Source: Escherichia phage vB_EcoM_SA91KD
Direction: 5' to 3' (one strand)
Sequence record: NC_079183
Length of the DNA: 53,673 nt
Position 1 is the first letter of the stretch. Every line of letters begins with the position of its first letter. Shown one piece after another: positions 7,936 to 25,449 of the stretch. The notes below the pieces were generated by a model, which saw only the letters and a program-made list of their open reading frames with translations, did no database searches and was not told the origin of the DNA. The translations under genes and the position numbers were made by a program.

Positions 7936-7975
7936 ATTAACAAGGAGCATTCATTGAGTGTTCCTGATTAATTCA

Positions 7976-7992
7976 ACATTAGTTGGATGTGA
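7976..7992 (+). promoter_or_regulatory. Promoter-like box ACATTAGTTGGATGTGA
   Basis: Exact consensus, intergenic, about 75 nt upstream of the SSB-like gene. Confidence 0.45.
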
Positions 7993-8064
7993 GAGACAAA
8001 GCTATTCCGTGGTTAGCAATGTCACTGAAACTTAAACTGTAATTAACTTAAGAGAATCTTAATC

Positions 8065-8436
8065 ATGGCACAATATTCAGATGTAAACACTGGCATCATC
8101 GGTCCTAACGGCTTCAAGAAAGACCCAAAACATCCCGACATTCGTGGACGTATTAACGTTGACGGAATCTGGTATTGGGTATCTGGTTGGAACAAGCAAG
8201 CAAATGGTAATGAATTTACCTCGCTGGCACTCACCATCATGACCCAAGAACAGGTCGATGAAATGATGCGCAAGCGTGAAGAGAAAGCTAAAGCCAAAGC
8301 TCAACCTCAAGCCGCTGCACAACAGCAACGTCAGCAACCTTCTGCTGCACAGCAACAGCAAGCTCCTGCTCAACAACAGCAGAGTAATTACAATCCAAAC
8401 GAGCCGAAAGACTTCGACGACGACATTCCATTCTAA
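8065..8436 (+). CDS. SSB-like protein with Gln-rich linker and host-type acidic tip DFDDDIPF (123 aa)
   Basis: C-terminus PNEPKDFDDDIPF matches the conserved SSB tail of enterobacterial SSB; compact N-terminal beta-rich domain. Confidence 0.65.
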   Translation: MAQYSDVNTGIIGPNGFKKDPKHPDIRGRINVDGIWYWVSGWNKQANGNEFTSLALTIMTQEQVDEMMRKREEKAKAKAQPQAAAQQQRQQPSAAQQQQAPAQQQQSNYNPNEPKDFDDDIPF

Positions 8437-8558
8437 TTGGAGATGCCCTATGAAAATTCTATGTTTTATAGGGCTACATAATTGGGAAATTTCACATGAA
8501 AACGATTATGTAACCTTTTGGGTTTGTAAGCATTGTTCAGCAATGCGTGAGGAATATC

Positions 8559-9455
8559 ATGGCAACTAACGTTATTGAAATACCTGCCAACTTGGTCAAA
8601 ACTGGCGACGTTGTAATTCATGAAGGTAAAGAGTATCTGATTGGGTATGTCTTCAGAATGGGTGTAGTTCAACTGCAATATTCTGGTGGATGTTTCAATT
8701 TTGAGTGGGACCAGGCAGTCAAAATCTTGGATAAACGTCCTACTACAGACTCCTTTGCAAAACCGGGCGCAACAACACGCGCAGTATTGGCAAGTCAAGT
8801 TCGACCCGGCAACACCTTATCTTATGGAATCAGGTTCTTTAAGATAAAGGAAGTTAAAGACCTGGGGGAAAGTGAGGTTCGCTTAATCCACGAAACAGGC
8901 TACTTTGACTTTTTACACAACCGCGTAGTCCATATTGTTAACGAGCCACCAGCTTTGGAAACTCCAACAATGGCATTCAACACCGAGATAAAGCCAGTGT
9001 TCCTTCCTTACGAGGGAGCAGTGAAACCATTCTCAGATGAAGAAGATGTTAAAGGTGCTGATGTTGAAGTTGGCGATGTTATCCGGTATAAAGGTGATTG
9101 GGCAACTGTCACAAATGCGTACAAACACCCAAATTCACCATACAATAAAATCAATATTAACTACGGCGACGTAAAAGGTTTGCAAGTACGTCTGATATTA
9201 ACTGGAACTTATTCGAGAAAGGTAAGAGCAGTAATGGAAACATTAAATATTCAAAATGCAATCGAAGCACAACGCATTCTTCTGCAAAAGCTGGAGCAAA
9301 TGTTGGAATTAACCCAGCTGCCTCCAACAGAAGATGGCAAGATGGCAATTGGCAATGCGTCAATTCGCGTGGACAAGGCAACAGTTATTAAAGCCGCACG
9401 CGATGAAATGAAAGCTGCCGCAAGCAAATCCGCAGAGCTTATCAAGAAGCTGTAA
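8559..9455 (+). CDS. Hypothetical early protein (about 298 aa)
   Basis: ATG 6 nt after gagg RBS (track ORF starts at GTG 8547); no recognisable motif. Confidence 0.55.
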   Translation: MATNVIEIPANLVKTGDVVIHEGKEYLIGYVFRMGVVQLQYSGGCFNFEWDQAVKILDKRPTTDSFAKPGATTRAVLASQVRPGNTLSYGIRFFKIKEVKDLGESEVRLIHETGYFDFLHNRVVHIVNEPPALETPTMAFNTEIKPVFLPYEGAVKPFSDEEDVKGADVEVGDVIRYKGDWATVTNAYKHPNSPYNKININYGDVKGLQVRLILTGTYSRKVRAVMETLNIQNAIEAQRILLQKLEQMLELTQLPPTEDGKMAIGNASIRVDKATVIKAARDEMKAAASKSAELIKKL

Positions 9456-15888: not shown

Positions 15889-15895
15889 ATTATTT

Positions 15896-15982
15896 GGACG
15901 AGTAGCTCAGAAGGTCTGCTCCAGAGCTGGTAGAGCAATCTGTTCGACAGATGTGTCGTTGGTTCGAATCCAACCTCGTCCA
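15896..15982 (+). tRNA. tRNA-like element with atypical internal structure (possible pseudo-tRNA or non-canonical tRNA)
   Basis: Canonical 7-bp acceptor stem (GGACGAG / CTCGTCC) and T-arm (GTTGG-TTCGAAT-CCAAC) with discriminator A; the 55 nt between them cannot be folded by eye into standard D and anticodon arms. Anticodon not assignable. Confidence 0.35.
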
Positions 15983-16015
15983 CCCACTTTAATAATTCGC
16001 AATACTGGAGTCCTT

Positions 16016-17783: not shown

Positions 17784-18254
17784 ATGAACCGGAGTCCAAC
17801 ATTGACCAAGCTGTCTAAGAAGTTTGTGTTAGACTGTGCTGCAAAAAGGTTTGACCAAATCAATTGGACTTGCAGTGGCAGATATGCGAGAACGGCAATA
17901 TATCTTAGTGGAAGACACTACAGTGTATGTAGGCACGTACTTGTATTCTACATGCACACAGGAAAGGTTGTTGACAAAGTTGACCATATTGATGGAAACA
18001 CCTTCAACGATGTTCCAGGCAATTTGCGGGAAGCAACACAACTTCAAAATTGCCACAACAGAAAGATAAACTCAAACAACTCATCTGGAGTTAAAGGTGT
18101 GCACAAAGATTCCAGAGGGAAATTTGTTGCAAGGTTGCGAGTAGGTAATGGTAAAAGAATTTTCATAGGCAACTTCGATAAACTAGAGGATGCCGAAATA
18201 GCTATCAACAAGGCCAGAACATTTTATCACGGAGAATACGCGAACAATGGCTAA
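17784..18254 (+). CDS. HNH homing endonuclease with AP2-type DNA-binding domain (156 aa)
   Basis: HNH_3-like HIDGNTFNDVPGNLREATQLQNCHN, then AP2-like GVKGVHKDSRGKFVARLRVGNGKRIFIGNF. Confidence 0.7.
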   Translation: MNRSPTLTKLSKKFVLDCAAKRFDQINWTCSGRYARTAIYLSGRHYSVCRHVLVFYMHTGKVVDKVDHIDGNTFNDVPGNLREATQLQNCHNRKINSNNSSGVKGVHKDSRGKFVARLRVGNGKRIFIGNFDKLEDAEIAINKARTFYHGEYANNG

Positions 18255-18910: not shown

Positions 18911-20674
18911 ATGAACGTCAAGCAATGTGTGGCTAAGATTAAGCACGATGTACCAGACTGTAAATCCACATCTGGCAAGTCTTTACAGGTTTGGTTGAAT
19001 GTCGATGAAGCTGGTAATAAGAACTTCTCTGGTTACTGCTTTGCGTGTGGCGTTCTAGTACCAAATCCTTATGGTAATAATCCGGAGAACATTCCAGAGA
19101 TTAAGGTCAAAACTCCAGAAGAGATTCAGGAAGAAGTTGATGAAATCACTGCTTGTCCCCCGTTTGACTTAACTCATCGCAGCATTGAGCCGGAGTTCTG
19201 GAAAGCTGCTGGTGTTCGACTTCTGTATTCAGAGTATGATGGGAAGACTCCAAATGCTTTGGCGCATGGCTACACCAAAAATGGTAAACTTGTTCGTTGG
19301 AAGATTAAACTTCTGAACAAGAAAGTTATGTGGTCAGTTGGTGACACCCAGGGTAACGACCCTTACAACTGGATGGCTGCAAAAGCAATTGGCGGTAAGA
19401 CACTGTTCATCACAGAAGGTGAAGAAGACTGTATCGCATTGCGTCAAATCCTCAAGACCATGAACCGTGGTGGTGCATACGAAGATTTGGATTTTGCTGT
19501 AATTAGTTTGAGCGATGGGAGTGATTCCGTACACAAATGTCTGTCACCAGTTGCAGAAGAAATTAAGCAACGTTGGGAACAGGTTGTTATCGTATTTGAT
19601 GATGACGAACCTGGACGTAAAGCTGCAAAAGAAGCGTGTCGATTGTTGCCTGGTGCAATGATTGCAACACTTCCAGCTAACGATGCCAACGATTGTTTGA
19701 AGCGTGGCTTGCTCAAAGCTACTCAATCTGCTGTTGTGTTCCGTGCTGCTCGTCCTCTACCTACAGCACTTGTCAACAAAGAGCTTCTTATGGAAGAGCT
19801 TGATGACGAGGTTGAACAGGGTGTGGATTATCCTTGGCCCAAGCTAACCGACTTAATGTTTGGTCAACGTCGAGCCGAAGTTATTACAATCGGTGGTGCA
19901 GAAGGTGGTGGTAAAACTACACTATCCCGTCAGATTGTGCATCACAACATTACCAAGCATGATTGGGGAGTGTTTACTGCATACATGGAGGAAACTCCTA
20001 CAGAAACACTGCGCCGAATGGCTGGCCTCAATGACAACTTGCCATATTGGGAACCTGCGTTTACTCGTGAAGACCCTCGATATGATGAAGCTAAGTTCCG
20101 TCAAACTGCTGCGAAGATGCTTCGTAACATGGAGATTTGGGACCGCAAGCAAGCTGGAGAAGACCCTTATGAAACCTGGGATGGGTTAAAGACGATTCTT
20201 CGTCAGATTGGGCCAGACATTGATATGTTTGTCCTTGATAACTTAACCTACTTATCGGAAGGGATTTCTACCTCAGAGAAGAACGACTTCTTAGGTAAGC
20301 TGTATGCAGATATTACCAAACTGGCAGACCAATACCAGTTCCATGTAAATATTCTGTCGCACCTTAACCCTGTGGCAAAAGGTCAACGACCTCATGAAGA
20401 TGGCGGACGAATCAAGAAGTCAGACTTTACTGGCTCTCGTGCTGCTGCTAAATATTCTCATGGTATGTTCGGCTTTGAGCGTAATAGCCAGGCAGTTGAC
20501 CCAAACTGTTCTATCATTCGTTCCATTAAGGCTCGTAAGAGTGGTAAAACAGAAGGCTTCAAGACGTACTACGACACCGAATCCGGTCGAATCATTCAAC
20601 GTTCTTGGGATGACTCGCTGTTCGAAACTAAAGAGATTGTTCAACTTACTAAGAAGAACGGTCCTCATCAATAA
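18911..20674 (+). CDS. Bifunctional DNA primase-helicase (T7 gp4-like), 587 aa
   Basis: N-terminal Cys4 zinc ribbon, TOPRIM-like EGEEDCIAL, Walker A GGAEGGGKTT. Confidence 0.85.
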   Translation: MNVKQCVAKIKHDVPDCKSTSGKSLQVWLNVDEAGNKNFSGYCFACGVLVPNPYGNNPENIPEIKVKTPEEIQEEVDEITACPPFDLTHRSIEPEFWKAAGVRLLYSEYDGKTPNALAHGYTKNGKLVRWKIKLLNKKVMWSVGDTQGNDPYNWMAAKAIGGKTLFITEGEEDCIALRQILKTMNRGGAYEDLDFAVISLSDGSDSVHKCLSPVAEEIKQRWEQVVIVFDDDEPGRKAAKEACRLLPGAMIATLPANDANDCLKRGLLKATQSAVVFRAARPLPTALVNKELLMEELDDEVEQGVDYPWPKLTDLMFGQRRAEVITIGGAEGGGKTTLSRQIVHHNITKHDWGVFTAYMEETPTETLRRMAGLNDNLPYWEPAFTREDPRYDEAKFRQTAAKMLRNMEIWDRKQAGEDPYETWDGLKTILRQIGPDIDMFVLDNLTYLSEGISTSEKNDFLGKLYADITKLADQYQFHVNILSHLNPVAKGQRPHEDGGRIKKSDFTGSRAAAKYSHGMFGFERNSQAVDPNCSIIRSIKARKSGKTEGFKTYYDTESGRIIQRSWDDSLFETKEIVQLTKKNGPHQ

Positions 20675-20739: not shown

Positions 20740-22674
20740 GTGTTGTATCCTTGGGAGAACATGTACGCCAGTGACATTGAAACAACTGGCCTGTTGGAGC
20801 AAATGCGTAAGCAAGCTGCACCACGTCTTCACAACATTGGATATATTGATGTTCTAACTCGTGAAGAAACTGTAATAGAGTGGACCGACAGAAAATCTAT
20901 CCAGGCATTTCTGGATACAGGCCCAACGCTAATCATGCACAACGGCGCAACCTTTGACTTTGAAGCACTGAGGTTCCTTGGTTACGACGTTTCAAAATGT
21001 ACCTTAATTGATACTTTGTTTATCAGTTGGTATCTGCAACCTCGTCGTGTTAAGCACGGCTTAGAAGGTTACGGCGAAGAGTTTGGTGTACCAAAACCAG
21101 TCATCGAAGATTGGGAAAATCAAACTCAAGAAGAGTACAACCATCGTGTGATGGAAGACTGCAAGATTCAGTTGAAGCTGTGGGAACAGCAATACATTCA
21201 ACTCTTGAAGATTTATAAATCTCCTAGCGAAGTTAAGCGCTTCGTTGAATACCTGATGACAAAAGCTCGTCAGCAAGTTATTCAGCAACGTACTCGCTGG
21301 AAGTTAAACATTGAGAAGGCATTGGCATTTAAAGCCAAACTGGAGCCAATGATTAAAGAGAAGACGGACGCATTGGAAGCATCAATGCCGCGTGTTCCGG
21401 AATATGTTATCAAGACCCGTCCAGCTAAATGCCACAAAATGAACGGGCAACTGTCTGCCACTGGAATTAAGTGGAAGGCTATTTGTGATGCAAACGGTTT
21501 GGACTGGAAAGACCCAGACCTGGCTATCAAAGTTCTTAAAGGTTATAAGAAGCCTAATGCTGGTTCACATGTTCAAATTAAGGATTGGTTGTTCAGCCTG
21601 GGTTGGGAACCGGAAACCTTTAAGTTTGACCGTAACAAGGAAACAGGTGAAACTCGCCAGATTCCACAAATCACTGTGAAGGATGAAGATGGCAATCCTG
21701 AAATATGTCCGAGCTTGCATAAGCTGGCGGAAAGAAACCCCGACTCTGGTATTCAACATCTTATTGGGATGGGCGTGTATAAACACCGTCTGTCTGTTGT
21801 TAATGGCTTCCTTCGCGACGTCGATGAAGATGGGTTCCTTACTGCACGATGCGGTGGCCTTACCAATACTTTACGCCTTAAGCATCGCGAACTTGTTAAC
21901 CTCCCTTCTATTCGTGTATTTGGCGGTGAAGAACTGCGTTCAATGCTGGAAGCGTGGCGTGAAGACTACGAACAGTTAGGCTCTGATTTGTGTTCTCTGG
22001 AAGACCGATGTAAGCACCACTTCCAGTGGATGTATGACCCTGAATACGTTAAGAAGCAGTTGGCACCAGACTATGATGCTCACCTTGCAATCGGCGTAAT
22101 TGGTGGATTTATTACAGAACAGGAGTCTCAGGACCACAAGGACGGAATTAAGAAGTGTAAACAACGTCCAATGTTTAAGACCACAAACTATGCTTGTCAG
22201 TATGGTGCTGGTATACCAACTGTAGCCCGTTCTGCTGGTTGCGACCAGAATACTGCTGCACGACTGCATAAAGCATATTGGGACTTGAACTGGTCTATTA
22301 AAGAGATTGCTGCAAACACCAAAGTTGTAACAATTGATGGTCAGATGTGGCAACAGAATCCGGTAAACAAATTCTGGTATTCATTGCGTACAGAGAAAGA
22401 CCGATTCTCCACATTGTGTCAGGGTACTGGTGCATATGTGTTTGATATTTGGTGTAACAACATCATTGCAATTTGTAATGAGCGTTGGGGATGTGACCCA
22501 CTTCTGTCCGGGCAATTCCACGACGAATTGATTCTCCAAGTTAAGAAAGGTTTCCGTGATTTGTGGACGGACTTGCTTAATGAGGCAATGGACCGAACCA
22601 ACAAAGAACTTAAACTTAACCGCGATTGTGCATGTGATGTGCAGTTCGGTGATAACTACGCAGAGATTCACTAA
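20740..22674 (+). CDS. Family A DNA polymerase with 3'-5' exonuclease domain (T7 gp5-like), 644 aa
   Basis: Exo I DIETTGL; polymerase motif B KTTNYACQYGAG; motif C QFHDE. GTG start per track; ATG at 20761 possible. Confidence 0.85.
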   Translation: MLYPWENMYASDIETTGLLEQMRKQAAPRLHNIGYIDVLTREETVIEWTDRKSIQAFLDTGPTLIMHNGATFDFEALRFLGYDVSKCTLIDTLFISWYLQPRRVKHGLEGYGEEFGVPKPVIEDWENQTQEEYNHRVMEDCKIQLKLWEQQYIQLLKIYKSPSEVKRFVEYLMTKARQQVIQQRTRWKLNIEKALAFKAKLEPMIKEKTDALEASMPRVPEYVIKTRPAKCHKMNGQLSATGIKWKAICDANGLDWKDPDLAIKVLKGYKKPNAGSHVQIKDWLFSLGWEPETFKFDRNKETGETRQIPQITVKDEDGNPEICPSLHKLAERNPDSGIQHLIGMGVYKHRLSVVNGFLRDVDEDGFLTARCGGLTNTLRLKHRELVNLPSIRVFGGEELRSMLEAWREDYEQLGSDLCSLEDRCKHHFQWMYDPEYVKKQLAPDYDAHLAIGVIGGFITEQESQDHKDGIKKCKQRPMFKTTNYACQYGAGIPTVARSAGCDQNTAARLHKAYWDLNWSIKEIAANTKVVTIDGQMWQQNPVNKFWYSLRTEKDRFSTLCQGTGAYVFDIWCNNIIAICNERWGCDPLLSGQFHDELILQVKKGFRDLWTDLLNEAMDRTNKELKLNRDCACDVQFGDNYAEIH

Positions 22675-24924: not shown

Positions 24925-25449
24925 ATGGCTTACGGTTATTGTGGAACGGAAGCCAAGTTTGTATCTTGGCTCCAATCTGCTATTCGAAGTGTTTGGTCTA
25001 AACACCCAAGCAAACTCGCGCTAATACAATCTCGACGCATTGCATTGAAGGTCGGTGACTCAAAGAAACCAATCTTCCACATTCAGTGCTACCATTGTAA
25101 GAAGTTGTATAAGCTCAAAGAGATTGAAGTAAACCACAAAGTTCAAGTTGGTGGCCTCCTTAAATTGGAAGACCTGCACCGCTTTGTGGACAACCTTCTA
25201 CTGGTTCAGCCAGAAGATTTGGAATTGCTGTGTAAAGATTGTCACGGCATTATTACATACATGGAACGATATGGTGTATCACGACGTGATGCAGTCATTG
25301 AGAAGAAGTGTATTGCATTTGCCAAATTGTCTGACGAAGAGCAAATTGCCAAGTGCAATCTTGCTAAAATAGAGCCAGTTCCTAAAACCAAAATCGGACG
25401 CAAGAATGCTGTTCGAGAATACCTGAGAAAGAATCTTAATGTCTATTAA
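24925..25449 (+). CDS. Cys/His-rich putative HNH-type nuclease or zinc-binding protein (174 aa)
   Basis: CYHC ... NH ... CKDCH spacing is consistent with an HNH zinc finger. Confidence 0.4.
   Translation: MAYGYCGTEAKFVSWLQSAIRSVWSKHPSKLALIQSRRIALKVGDSKKPIFHIQCYHCKKLYKLKEIEVNHKVQVGGLLKLEDLHRFVDNLLLVQPEDLELLCKDCHGIITYMERYGVSRRDAVIEKKCIAFAKLSDEEQIAKCNLAKIEPVPKTKIGRKNAVREYLRKNLNVY

Follow-up and report, generated by a model that had tools for sequence, protein, structure and literature searches.

The window analysed here is a stretch of 53,673 nucleotides from Escherichia phage vB_EcoM_SA91KD (NC_079183) in which every gene lies on the + strand. [quoted passage not shown] The initial annotation had pointed to an enterobacterial host, and the close kinship with coliphages bears this out. 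Judging by the genes annotated in its 95.8%-identical relative, the phage has a T7-type (single-subunit) RNA polymerase, a helicase/primase (18911-20674) and a PolA-type DNA polymerase (20740-22674), as well as a 5'-3' exonuclease, a ligase and nucleotide-metabolism enzymes. The SSB-like gene belongs to a block of small genes that was called host-takeover-like in the published genome paper (PMC6266442), and the replication genes follow approximately 10 kb downstream of it. A second SSB was found in the window neither by PHROG scans of 20 ORFs nor by phmmer searches of all six-frame ORFs with E. coli SSB and T7 gp2.5; the gp2.5 query returned nothing below E=4. Since many phages simply rely on host SSB, the absence of another SSB from the window is weak evidence.

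The features of the locus are collected in Table 1. The window contains 11 matches to a 20-nt promoter consensus. The promoter-like site is among them and is identical to the annotated 'putative phage promoter 3' that precedes gp15 in phiEcoM-GJ1. No sigma-70-like promoter or terminator-like site was found on the + strand between 7700 and 8800. Because the phage-type site is identical to an annotated promoter and no sigma-70-like site was found, the SSB-like gene probably has its own phage RNA polymerase promoter. The gene had originally been labelled early; with a phage-RNA-polymerase-type promoter of its own it is rather a 'middle/DNA-metabolism' gene than an 'early' gene of the host RNA polymerase. 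Two other ORFs overlap it, one antisense (99 aa, 8077..8376) and one in the +2 frame (97 aa, 8276..8569), and both are by-products of the CAG/CAA-rich linker.

Table 1. Features of the SSB-like gene and its upstream region (positions in the window)
Feature	Residues	Position	Strand	Description	Basis
Promoter-like site		7974..7993	+	phage-RNA-polymerase-type, CAACATTAGTTGGATGTGAG, 72 nt 5' of ATG	
Shine-Dalgarno-like site		8050..8055	+	weak, AAGAGA, 9 nt before ATG	direct sequence reading
CDS	1-123	8065..8436	+	SSB-like, orthologue of phiEcoM-GJ1 gp15; ATG start, 123 aa, TAA stop 8434-8436	
Beta domain	1-60	8065..8244	+	predicted four-stranded domain, strands 8-14, 26-32, 35-46, 49-58	AF2
C-terminal alpha-helix	61-79	8245..8301	+	TQEQVDEMMRKREEKAKAKA, predicted to complete the beta4-alpha unit	DSSP on AF2 models
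Linker	80-115 (about)	8302..8409	+	Gln/Ala/Pro-rich, predicted disordered	
Tip	116-123	8410..8433	+	DFDDDIPF, the E. coli SSB C-terminal tip (SSB-Ct)	

The phage protein ends ...SNYNPNEPKDFDDDIPF and E. coli K-12 SSB, read from NC_000913.3, ends ...SNEPPMDFDDDIPF. The last eight residues are identical, just as the initial annotation had claimed in recognizing the host SSB acidic tip. The tail peptide of the phage protein is NPNEPKDFDDDIPF, and an 'NEP' just upstream of the tip is common to both proteins with a one-residue offset. Tip residues F117, D118, P122 and F123 are invariant among 31 aligned homologues, and in the six-frame translation of the window this ORF is the only one with an acidic [ILVM]PF ending. 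The tip is no chance feature. Of 31 residues of the linker, 15 are Q, 7 are A and 3 are P; unlike that of E. coli SSB, it lacks glycine. Its AF2 confidence is that of a disordered segment (pLDDT <50 over residues 82–118), and its length varies through indels among close relatives. When the PDB was searched with the full protein sequence, it was matched only at residues 73–123, by the C-terminal tails of SSB from Klebsiella and E. coli. The SSB-like organisation proposed at the outset is present in each of its parts, with a predicted folded domain, a disordered Gln-rich linker and a host-identical acidic tip.

The N-domain had been described as non-canonical, and the profile searches agree. Neither the phage protein nor any of 132 family members matched PF00436. 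The NCBIfam SSB models align to residues 58–123 through their own C-terminal parts, with scores far below their cutoffs: TIGR00621 reaches 22.9 bits (cutoff 53.95) on an alignment to the tail that extends back to residue 40, and NF006533 reaches 25 bits (cutoff 260). Comparison of the family profile with an SSB OB alignment by hhalign aligned nothing, the OB alignment being shallow, with sequences at least 92% identical to E. coli SSB. Pfam searches with the protein and with the N-domain alignment gave low-complexity or chance matches only (PAT1, HSP70, Shiga-toxin B). A PDB search with the Chaseviridae N-domain profile gave nothing, and one with a broad 43-sequence family profile gave chance trypsin matches only (E~1.4). 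Since the N-domain is no standard OB-fold SSB domain, the ordinary homologue of the host gene against which the initial annotation had set its proposal was not found.

The orthologue has been annotated as 'single-stranded DNA-binding protein' in phiEcoM-GJ1-like records since the phiEcoM-GJ1 genome, in which it is gp15, was deposited. Genome papers give the SSB label by BLAST alone (PMC6266442). Because SSB models match the tail and never the N-domain, the existing label has been deduced from the tail. PHROG 7364, named 'single strand DNA binding protein', matches residues 1–91 on profile positions 1–93 (E=1.5e-42). PHROG 18154, which bears the same name, covers the N-domain too, and distant relatives of the phage protein also match PHROG 7364 or 18154; the names of these groups derive from member annotations, not tested function. 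A literature search found no experimental work on the family, on DUF736 or on Chaseviridae SSB, be it on the oligomeric state or on the binding of ssDNA or of partners. Relatives were already annotated as SSB. The N-domain has neither a Pfam family nor a solved relative. No description was found in the literature of the non-OB topology, of how large the family is, of its one- and two-domain members or of the host-matched tips.

The structure was predicted by AF2 with two inputs, a close-homologue alignment and then an N-domain-only alignment. Both runs gave the same confident model (pLDDT >90 over residues 11–60). The N-terminal part is as short as had been estimated (~75 residues), with predicted strands between residues 8 and 58 followed by a helix that starts at residue 61 and ends at 74 or 79 depending on the model. 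BFVD models of distant relatives superpose at 1.1–2.2 Å over ~60 residues; since these models are independent, the fold prediction is reproducible. Residues 1–60 carry the family motif N-G-(I/L)-x2-N-x2-K-x4-HPD-x2-G ... G-x2-YW-x-SGW-x-K ... F-x-SL and are mildly basic (six K+R to five D+E, pI 8.1). In the alignment of close homologues (n=62, nearly all on ~53-kb phage contigs) the invariant residues are G10, N15, P24, G28, G34, W36, W42, F51, L54, M59 and T60. The columns conserved across the family are G10, N15, P24, G28, G34, W42 and S53. The helix is kept in the Chaseviridae subfamily, is shorter in some other members and is missing from many short ones.

The nearest structural matches of the AF2 model are proteins that bind ssDNA or RNA. 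The Burkholderia PC4 homologue BPSL1147 ranked 1 (score 4.8), followed by the Whirly protein StWhy2 at rank 2 (4.5), Borrelia Pur-alpha at rank 3 (4.2) and the PC4-like SSB of phage T5 (4bg7) at rank 6 (4.0). MoSub1 appeared at ranks 15 and 33 (3.8 and 3.6), Pur-alpha repeat III at rank 40 (3.5) and MRP2 at rank 42 (3.5). The AF2 models contain the beta-beta-beta-beta-alpha unit of the PC4-like/Whirly fold, which is the topology of a PC4-like half-domain (PMC7549692). Phage T5 SSB and the PC4-like proteins (PF02229; PDB 4bg7, 1pcf, 5a4n; YdbC; Whirly; Pur-alpha) are among the closest known systems. T5 SSB is a PC4-like dimer (PMC7145681, PMC7549692) and an example of a non-OB fold able to serve a phage replisome (PMC7145681).

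No Pfam match to PF02229 was found for the protein or its 132 relatives. The hhalign probability against PC4 was 0.08% with alignment A2 and 2–3% (P=0.015–0.025) with the broad family profile, the PC4 alignment being thin (a T5-type homologue search gave 4 sequences). The register of the alignment is structurally sensible, with HPD..G..V.G..YW placed over EFMGRHYLGIREYY and the conserved YW of the family over the 'EYW' of PC4. The Trp of this 'EYW' motif, W89 of PC4, stacks on DNA (PMC4350104). Sequence-level tests thus do not establish homology to PC4. Because many short family members lack the helix, it is the four-strand unit that forms the conserved core, and a strict PC4-like reading loses strength. 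We conclude that the N-domain is not a standard OB SSB domain and that its predicted topology is PC4-like, with membership of the PC4 family unproven by sequence.

A profile of the N-domain was searched against 1.84 billion cluster representatives (clusters at 50% identity). At E<=1e-3 it matched 2,361 clusters, of which 141 reached E<=1e-10; the proteins are almost without exception 70–170 aa long. The family consensus is xYDxxNxGxLFxNDRKxxDxHPDxxGxxxxxGxxYWxSGWxKxxxxGxxFxSL ... DDDIPF. An SSB-Ct-like ending, ...[DE]x[ILVM]PF, is present in 85 of the 148 best representatives, where DIPF occurs 42 times and EIPF, DVPF and DLPF are also found. Another 26 of the 148 have an acidic and aromatic ending, which brings the total with an SSB-Ct-like or acidic-aromatic ending to 111 (~75%). 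Many family members have nearly no linker, and some keep the domain without the tip. Two tandem beta-unit domains occur in 15 of the same 148 representatives. These tandem members are consistent with two units together making up the working module, an arrangement shared by type I and type II PC4-like proteins.

Among Pfam families, DUF736 (PF05284) alone recurs. It was matched over strands 1–4 by 18 of 132 members (best E=3e-4), all under the Pfam gathering score of 22.1 bits, and not by the window protein itself. A BFVD structure search likewise returned family members only, plus one weak DUF736 match at rank 19. Mesorhizobium ICEs and plasmids carry DUF736 as a backbone gene and, like phages of the family, are elements passing through ssDNA (PMC8627217). 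Because DUF736 is itself uncharacterised, the match adds no functional information.

Family members occupy slots normally held by ssb genes in replication and recombination modules. In Vibrio phage phiVC8, the member follows the helicase and precedes an endonuclease, PolA, primase and PurZ. The order in Acinetobacter phage Bhz20 is primase, helicase, DNA polymerase, member, PurZ. In one metagenomic phage (L011) a two-domain member is followed by PolA, Prim-Pol and a PurZ-like gene, and in another (L009) an ERF annealing protein and then a YqaJ exonuclease stand directly before an 83-aa member. RusA precedes the member in Methylophilales phage MEP301.

The tips follow the host. The coliphage protein carries the E. 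coli SSB ending, and members from Erwinia/Pantoea phages have the ending NEPPMDFDDDIPF, in agreement with the E. coli SSB tail over 13 residues. EPADLDDDLPF is the ending of the member from an Acinetobacter phage, and APADLDDDLPF that of the SSB encoded on the A. calcoaceticus chromosome. When 185,579 species genomes were scanned, DLDDDLPF directly before a stop codon turned up mostly in Acinetobacter/Moraxellaceae, with 52 Acinetobacter among the first 80 loci listed. Recent capture of the 3' end of a host ssb gene was considered as the source of the tips. It is ruled out by the DNA, as four of the eight tip codons differ synonymously between the phage and E. coli ssb and the Acinetobacter phage and SSB tips are identical at no more than 25 of 30 nt. 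Since matching tips have diverged synonymously, their identity has been kept by selection on the peptide and not by recent DNA capture. Nothing speaks more strongly for a reading of the tail by host proteins than these host-matched tips maintained by selection.

The protein resembles E. coli and other bacterial SSBs in its three-part plan of a DNA-binding domain, putative in the phage protein, a disordered low-complexity linker and an acidic tip, and the expected role is the same, namely ssDNA coating and recruitment of partners via the tip. The differences lie in the N-domain, which is about half the size of the bacterial one and is modelled as a four-strand meander with a helix, whereas bacterial SSB has a five-strand OB barrel. 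A tetramer is not expected for the phage protein. T7 gp2.5 and T4 gp32 are also phage replicative SSBs with acidic C-terminal tails that bind partners; gp2.5 ends in Phe, and the transcription and replication gene set of the window phage is comparable to that of T7. However, gp2.5 and gp32 have OB folds and tails that do not copy the host SSB tip, and neither shows sequence similarity to the window protein. The SSB of phage HK620 has a host-like C-terminal hexapeptide, NDYPPF, that is needed to recruit the phage annealing protein Sak4 (PMC5928155). It is paralleled by a family member (P0097) that adjoins ERF/YqaJ, but HK620 SSB is a 21-kDa tetrameric canonical SSB and the family of the window protein is not canonical.

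We think it fairly probable that the gene product is the phage's own ssDNA-binding protein on a non-OB scaffold, a dimer that acts in replication and recombination and links phage ssDNA to the host SSB interactome. Two beta4(-alpha) units would pair, as a homodimer or as a pseudo-dimer in two-domain relatives, into a curved beta surface like that of PC4 and Whirly. Against a dimer of this kind, PC4-like domains dimerise through the helix that many short members lack. Contacts of this surface to ssDNA would be made by conserved residues, both aromatic and basic. The i, i+2 rule puts W38, W42 and K44 on the same face of strand 3, and F51 and R29 are further candidates. The protein may coat phage ssDNA from the phage helicase-primase and PolA replisome, with the disordered Q/A/P linker keeping the tail free. 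The terminal ...DDDIPF-COO- would then dock into the SSB-Ct pockets of host partners. Partners of the E. coli SSB-Ct include Pol III chi, PriA, RecQ, RecO, RecJ, ExoI, RNase HI, UDG, Topo III and DnaG. The tail may equally be a handle for replisome or annealing proteins of the phage. Phage ssDNA would in this way be kept connected to the host genome-maintenance toolkit. Expression from a dedicated phage RNA polymerase promoter would fit a protein needed in stoichiometric amounts.

The initial annotation had left the choice between a minimal phage SSB that recruits host partners and a decoy. As a decoy, the protein would be a non-DNA-binding, perhaps oligomeric, carrier showing many copies of the host tip, and it would titrate host SSB-interacting proteins such as ExoI, RecJ, RecQ, PriA and chi. 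Host replication and repair would be shut down, or nuclease attack on phage DNA blunted. A tip identical to that of the host speaks for a decoy, as do the very small and weakly basic N-domain and the place of the gene among early/middle small genes described as host-takeover-like (PMC6266442). A decoy does not, however, explain why members adjoin DNA polymerase/primase or ERF/YqaJ in unrelated phages, or why aromatic and basic residues exposed on the beta strands are conserved across the family. The closest structural matches of the domain bind ssDNA or RNA, many members are nearly without a linker, and some retain the domain with no tip at all. We therefore regard a decoy as quite unlikely. 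The evidence from sequence and gene context favours the SSB, because of the position of the gene in unrelated phages, the absence of another SSB in the window and the host-matched tips.

An SSB could also carry a tail that mainly serves the phage's own replisome in the style of gp2.5, with the resemblance to the host tip incidental or secondary. The tails of T7 gp2.5 and T4 gp32 bind phage partners, and that of gp2.5 serves T7 DNA polymerase and helicase. This precedent (see also PMC10359462, PMC12339929), the recruitment of phage Sak4 by the HK620 SSB tail (PMC5928155) and the T7-style single-subunit RNA polymerase, helicase/primase and PolA of the window phage speak for such a use. Yet the tips track host-specific variants beyond the minimal need for acidic and aromatic residues, with PADLDDDLPF in both the Acinetobacter phage and Acinetobacter SSB and the Erwinia/Pantoea phage ending shared with enterobacterial SSB. 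Such close copying of the host is hard to explain if phage proteins alone read the tail, and a tail mainly for the phage replisome seems rather improbable to us. Use of the tail by host partners and by phage partners is not mutually exclusive. PC4 is a transcription cofactor, and the PC4-like topology of the domain could instead point to a PC4/N4-SSB/Drc-like cofactor of transcription or initiation that helps the phage RNA polymerase by stabilising melted DNA at promoters or origins and does not coat the lagging strand. The window phage encodes its own RNA polymerase, and LUZ7 Drc is a precedent for an ssDNA-binding RNA polymerase cofactor (PMC7145618). A role in replication and recombination is what the SSB-type linker and tip suggest, and so does the position of members beside PolA/primase/PurZ or ERF/YqaJ in phages that have no phage RNA polymerase, which makes a cofactor of this type very unlikely. 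The chance is slimmer still that the AF2 model misleads and the protein is an ordinary OB-fold SSB, homologous to bacterial SSB and highly diverged or truncated. The TIGR00621 alignment does stretch back to residue 40, a by-eye reading finds superficial N-terminal echoes of SSB strand 1 (N-x-I/V-x-L-x-G ... DP), and a few members have sub-threshold matches to the OB-fold Shiga-toxin B family.

If the N-domain binds ssDNA, the protein would be a minimal SSB of ~60 structured residues, unlike the bacterial SSB fold and yet using the host SSB-Ct 'language', and it would offer a compact natural system in which DNA coating can be separated from partner recruitment. Database 'SSB' labels for the family would in that case prove to have been given by the tail alone. 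If instead the decoy were true, it would be a new host-takeover mechanism targeting the SSB interactome. More tentatively, and with somewhat less than even confidence, we suggest that non-OB phage SSBs like this protein form a large superfamily (>2,000 clusters at 50% identity) that has gone unrecognised and may reach DUF736 of conjugative elements. Its ~55-residue beta4 unit would work in pairs in a PC4/Whirly-like manner, and the host-copied SSB tip would have been acquired or retained repeatedly. On that reading a second fold would have converged on the complete bacterial SSB design of core, disordered linker and interactome hook, seizing the host SSB interactome. The portability of phage recombineering proteins depends on host-matched SSB tips (bioRxiv 10.1101/2020.04.14.041095, PMC12054835, PMC13490951). 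Since some family members adjoin ERF/YqaJ, a practical use in recombineering is possible. In phages with 2-aminoadenine (PurZ), the family is in addition a marker of the replication module.

In Vibrio phage phiVC8 (L003), Acinetobacter phage Bhz20 (L004) and a metagenomic phage contig (L011), all 2-aminoadenine (PurZ) phages, family members are found inside the replication module, where they directly adjoin PolA-type polymerase and PurZ. Z-genome replication clusters may include this small SSB-like protein as a matter of course.

The SSB-type tip normally requires its terminal carboxylate. In phiVC8 p31 (L003 4803-5318) and in the Chaseviridae relative P0020, the protein as annotated or called continues 14-15 residues beyond the ...DDDIPF / ...ESIPF motif. 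Such an extension would bury the terminal carboxylate of the tip. Its source could be a sequencing error, an annotation error or natural loss of tip function.

The 'phage promoter' consensus of phiEcoM-GJ1, AAACATTAGTTGGATGTGAA, was matched to the window with up to 5 mismatches allowed. Eleven 20-nt matches were recovered, all on the + strand, and one of them lies directly upstream of the SSB-like gene. These promoter-like sites probably delimit the phage-RNAP transcription units of the window. Their positions are listed below together with those of the other features.

Features of the window discussed in the text
Feature	Position	Strand	Basis or remark
Promoter-like 20-nt sites	570, 2717, 3567, 7974, 12112, 12253, 12390, 14224, 14556, 22897, 42766	+	Consensus match
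99-aa Leu-rich ORF	8077-8376	-	Antisense, overlaps SSB-like gene
97-aa ORF	8276-8569	+ (other frame)	Overlaps SSB-like gene
302-aa ORF	8547-9455	+	Second gene downstream of SSB-like gene
tRNA-Ser, anticodon GCT, 92 nt	15895-15986	+	ARAGORN
HNH endonuclease ORF	17784-18254	+	PHROG 99
HNH endonuclease ORF	24925-25449	+	PHROG 1985

The 99-aa and 97-aa ORFs arise from the CAG/CAA-rich linker region and are without support as genes. The 302-aa ORF matches a PHROG family only over its C-terminal 140 residues (PHROG 20048, category 'function unknown'), and its N-terminal ~160 residues matched none in the PHROG comparison. Its phiEcoM-GJ1 counterpart, gp17, is shorter (229 aa). While ARAGORN assigns the tRNA of the window to serine, the sole tRNA in the phiEcoM-GJ1 record is labelled tRNA-Arg, with the remark that it 'may contain an intron'. 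Both HNH endonuclease ORFs, probably mobile genes of the homing type that vary among relatives, are insertions into the module for nucleotide metabolism and replication.

P0063, a protein of 1,158 aa, owes its E-value of 2.5e-35 in the family profile search to 21 partial matches, all confined to profile positions 40-72, which comprise the strand 3-4 hairpin plus helix. P0063 looks like a repeat protein. Finally, GenBank PP952070.1, 'Staphylococcus phage Pel53', shares 88.5% identity with the coliphage region across 78% of the query. Staphylococcus hyicus, which that record gives as host, looks doubtful, and the label is possibly the result of contamination or mislabelling.
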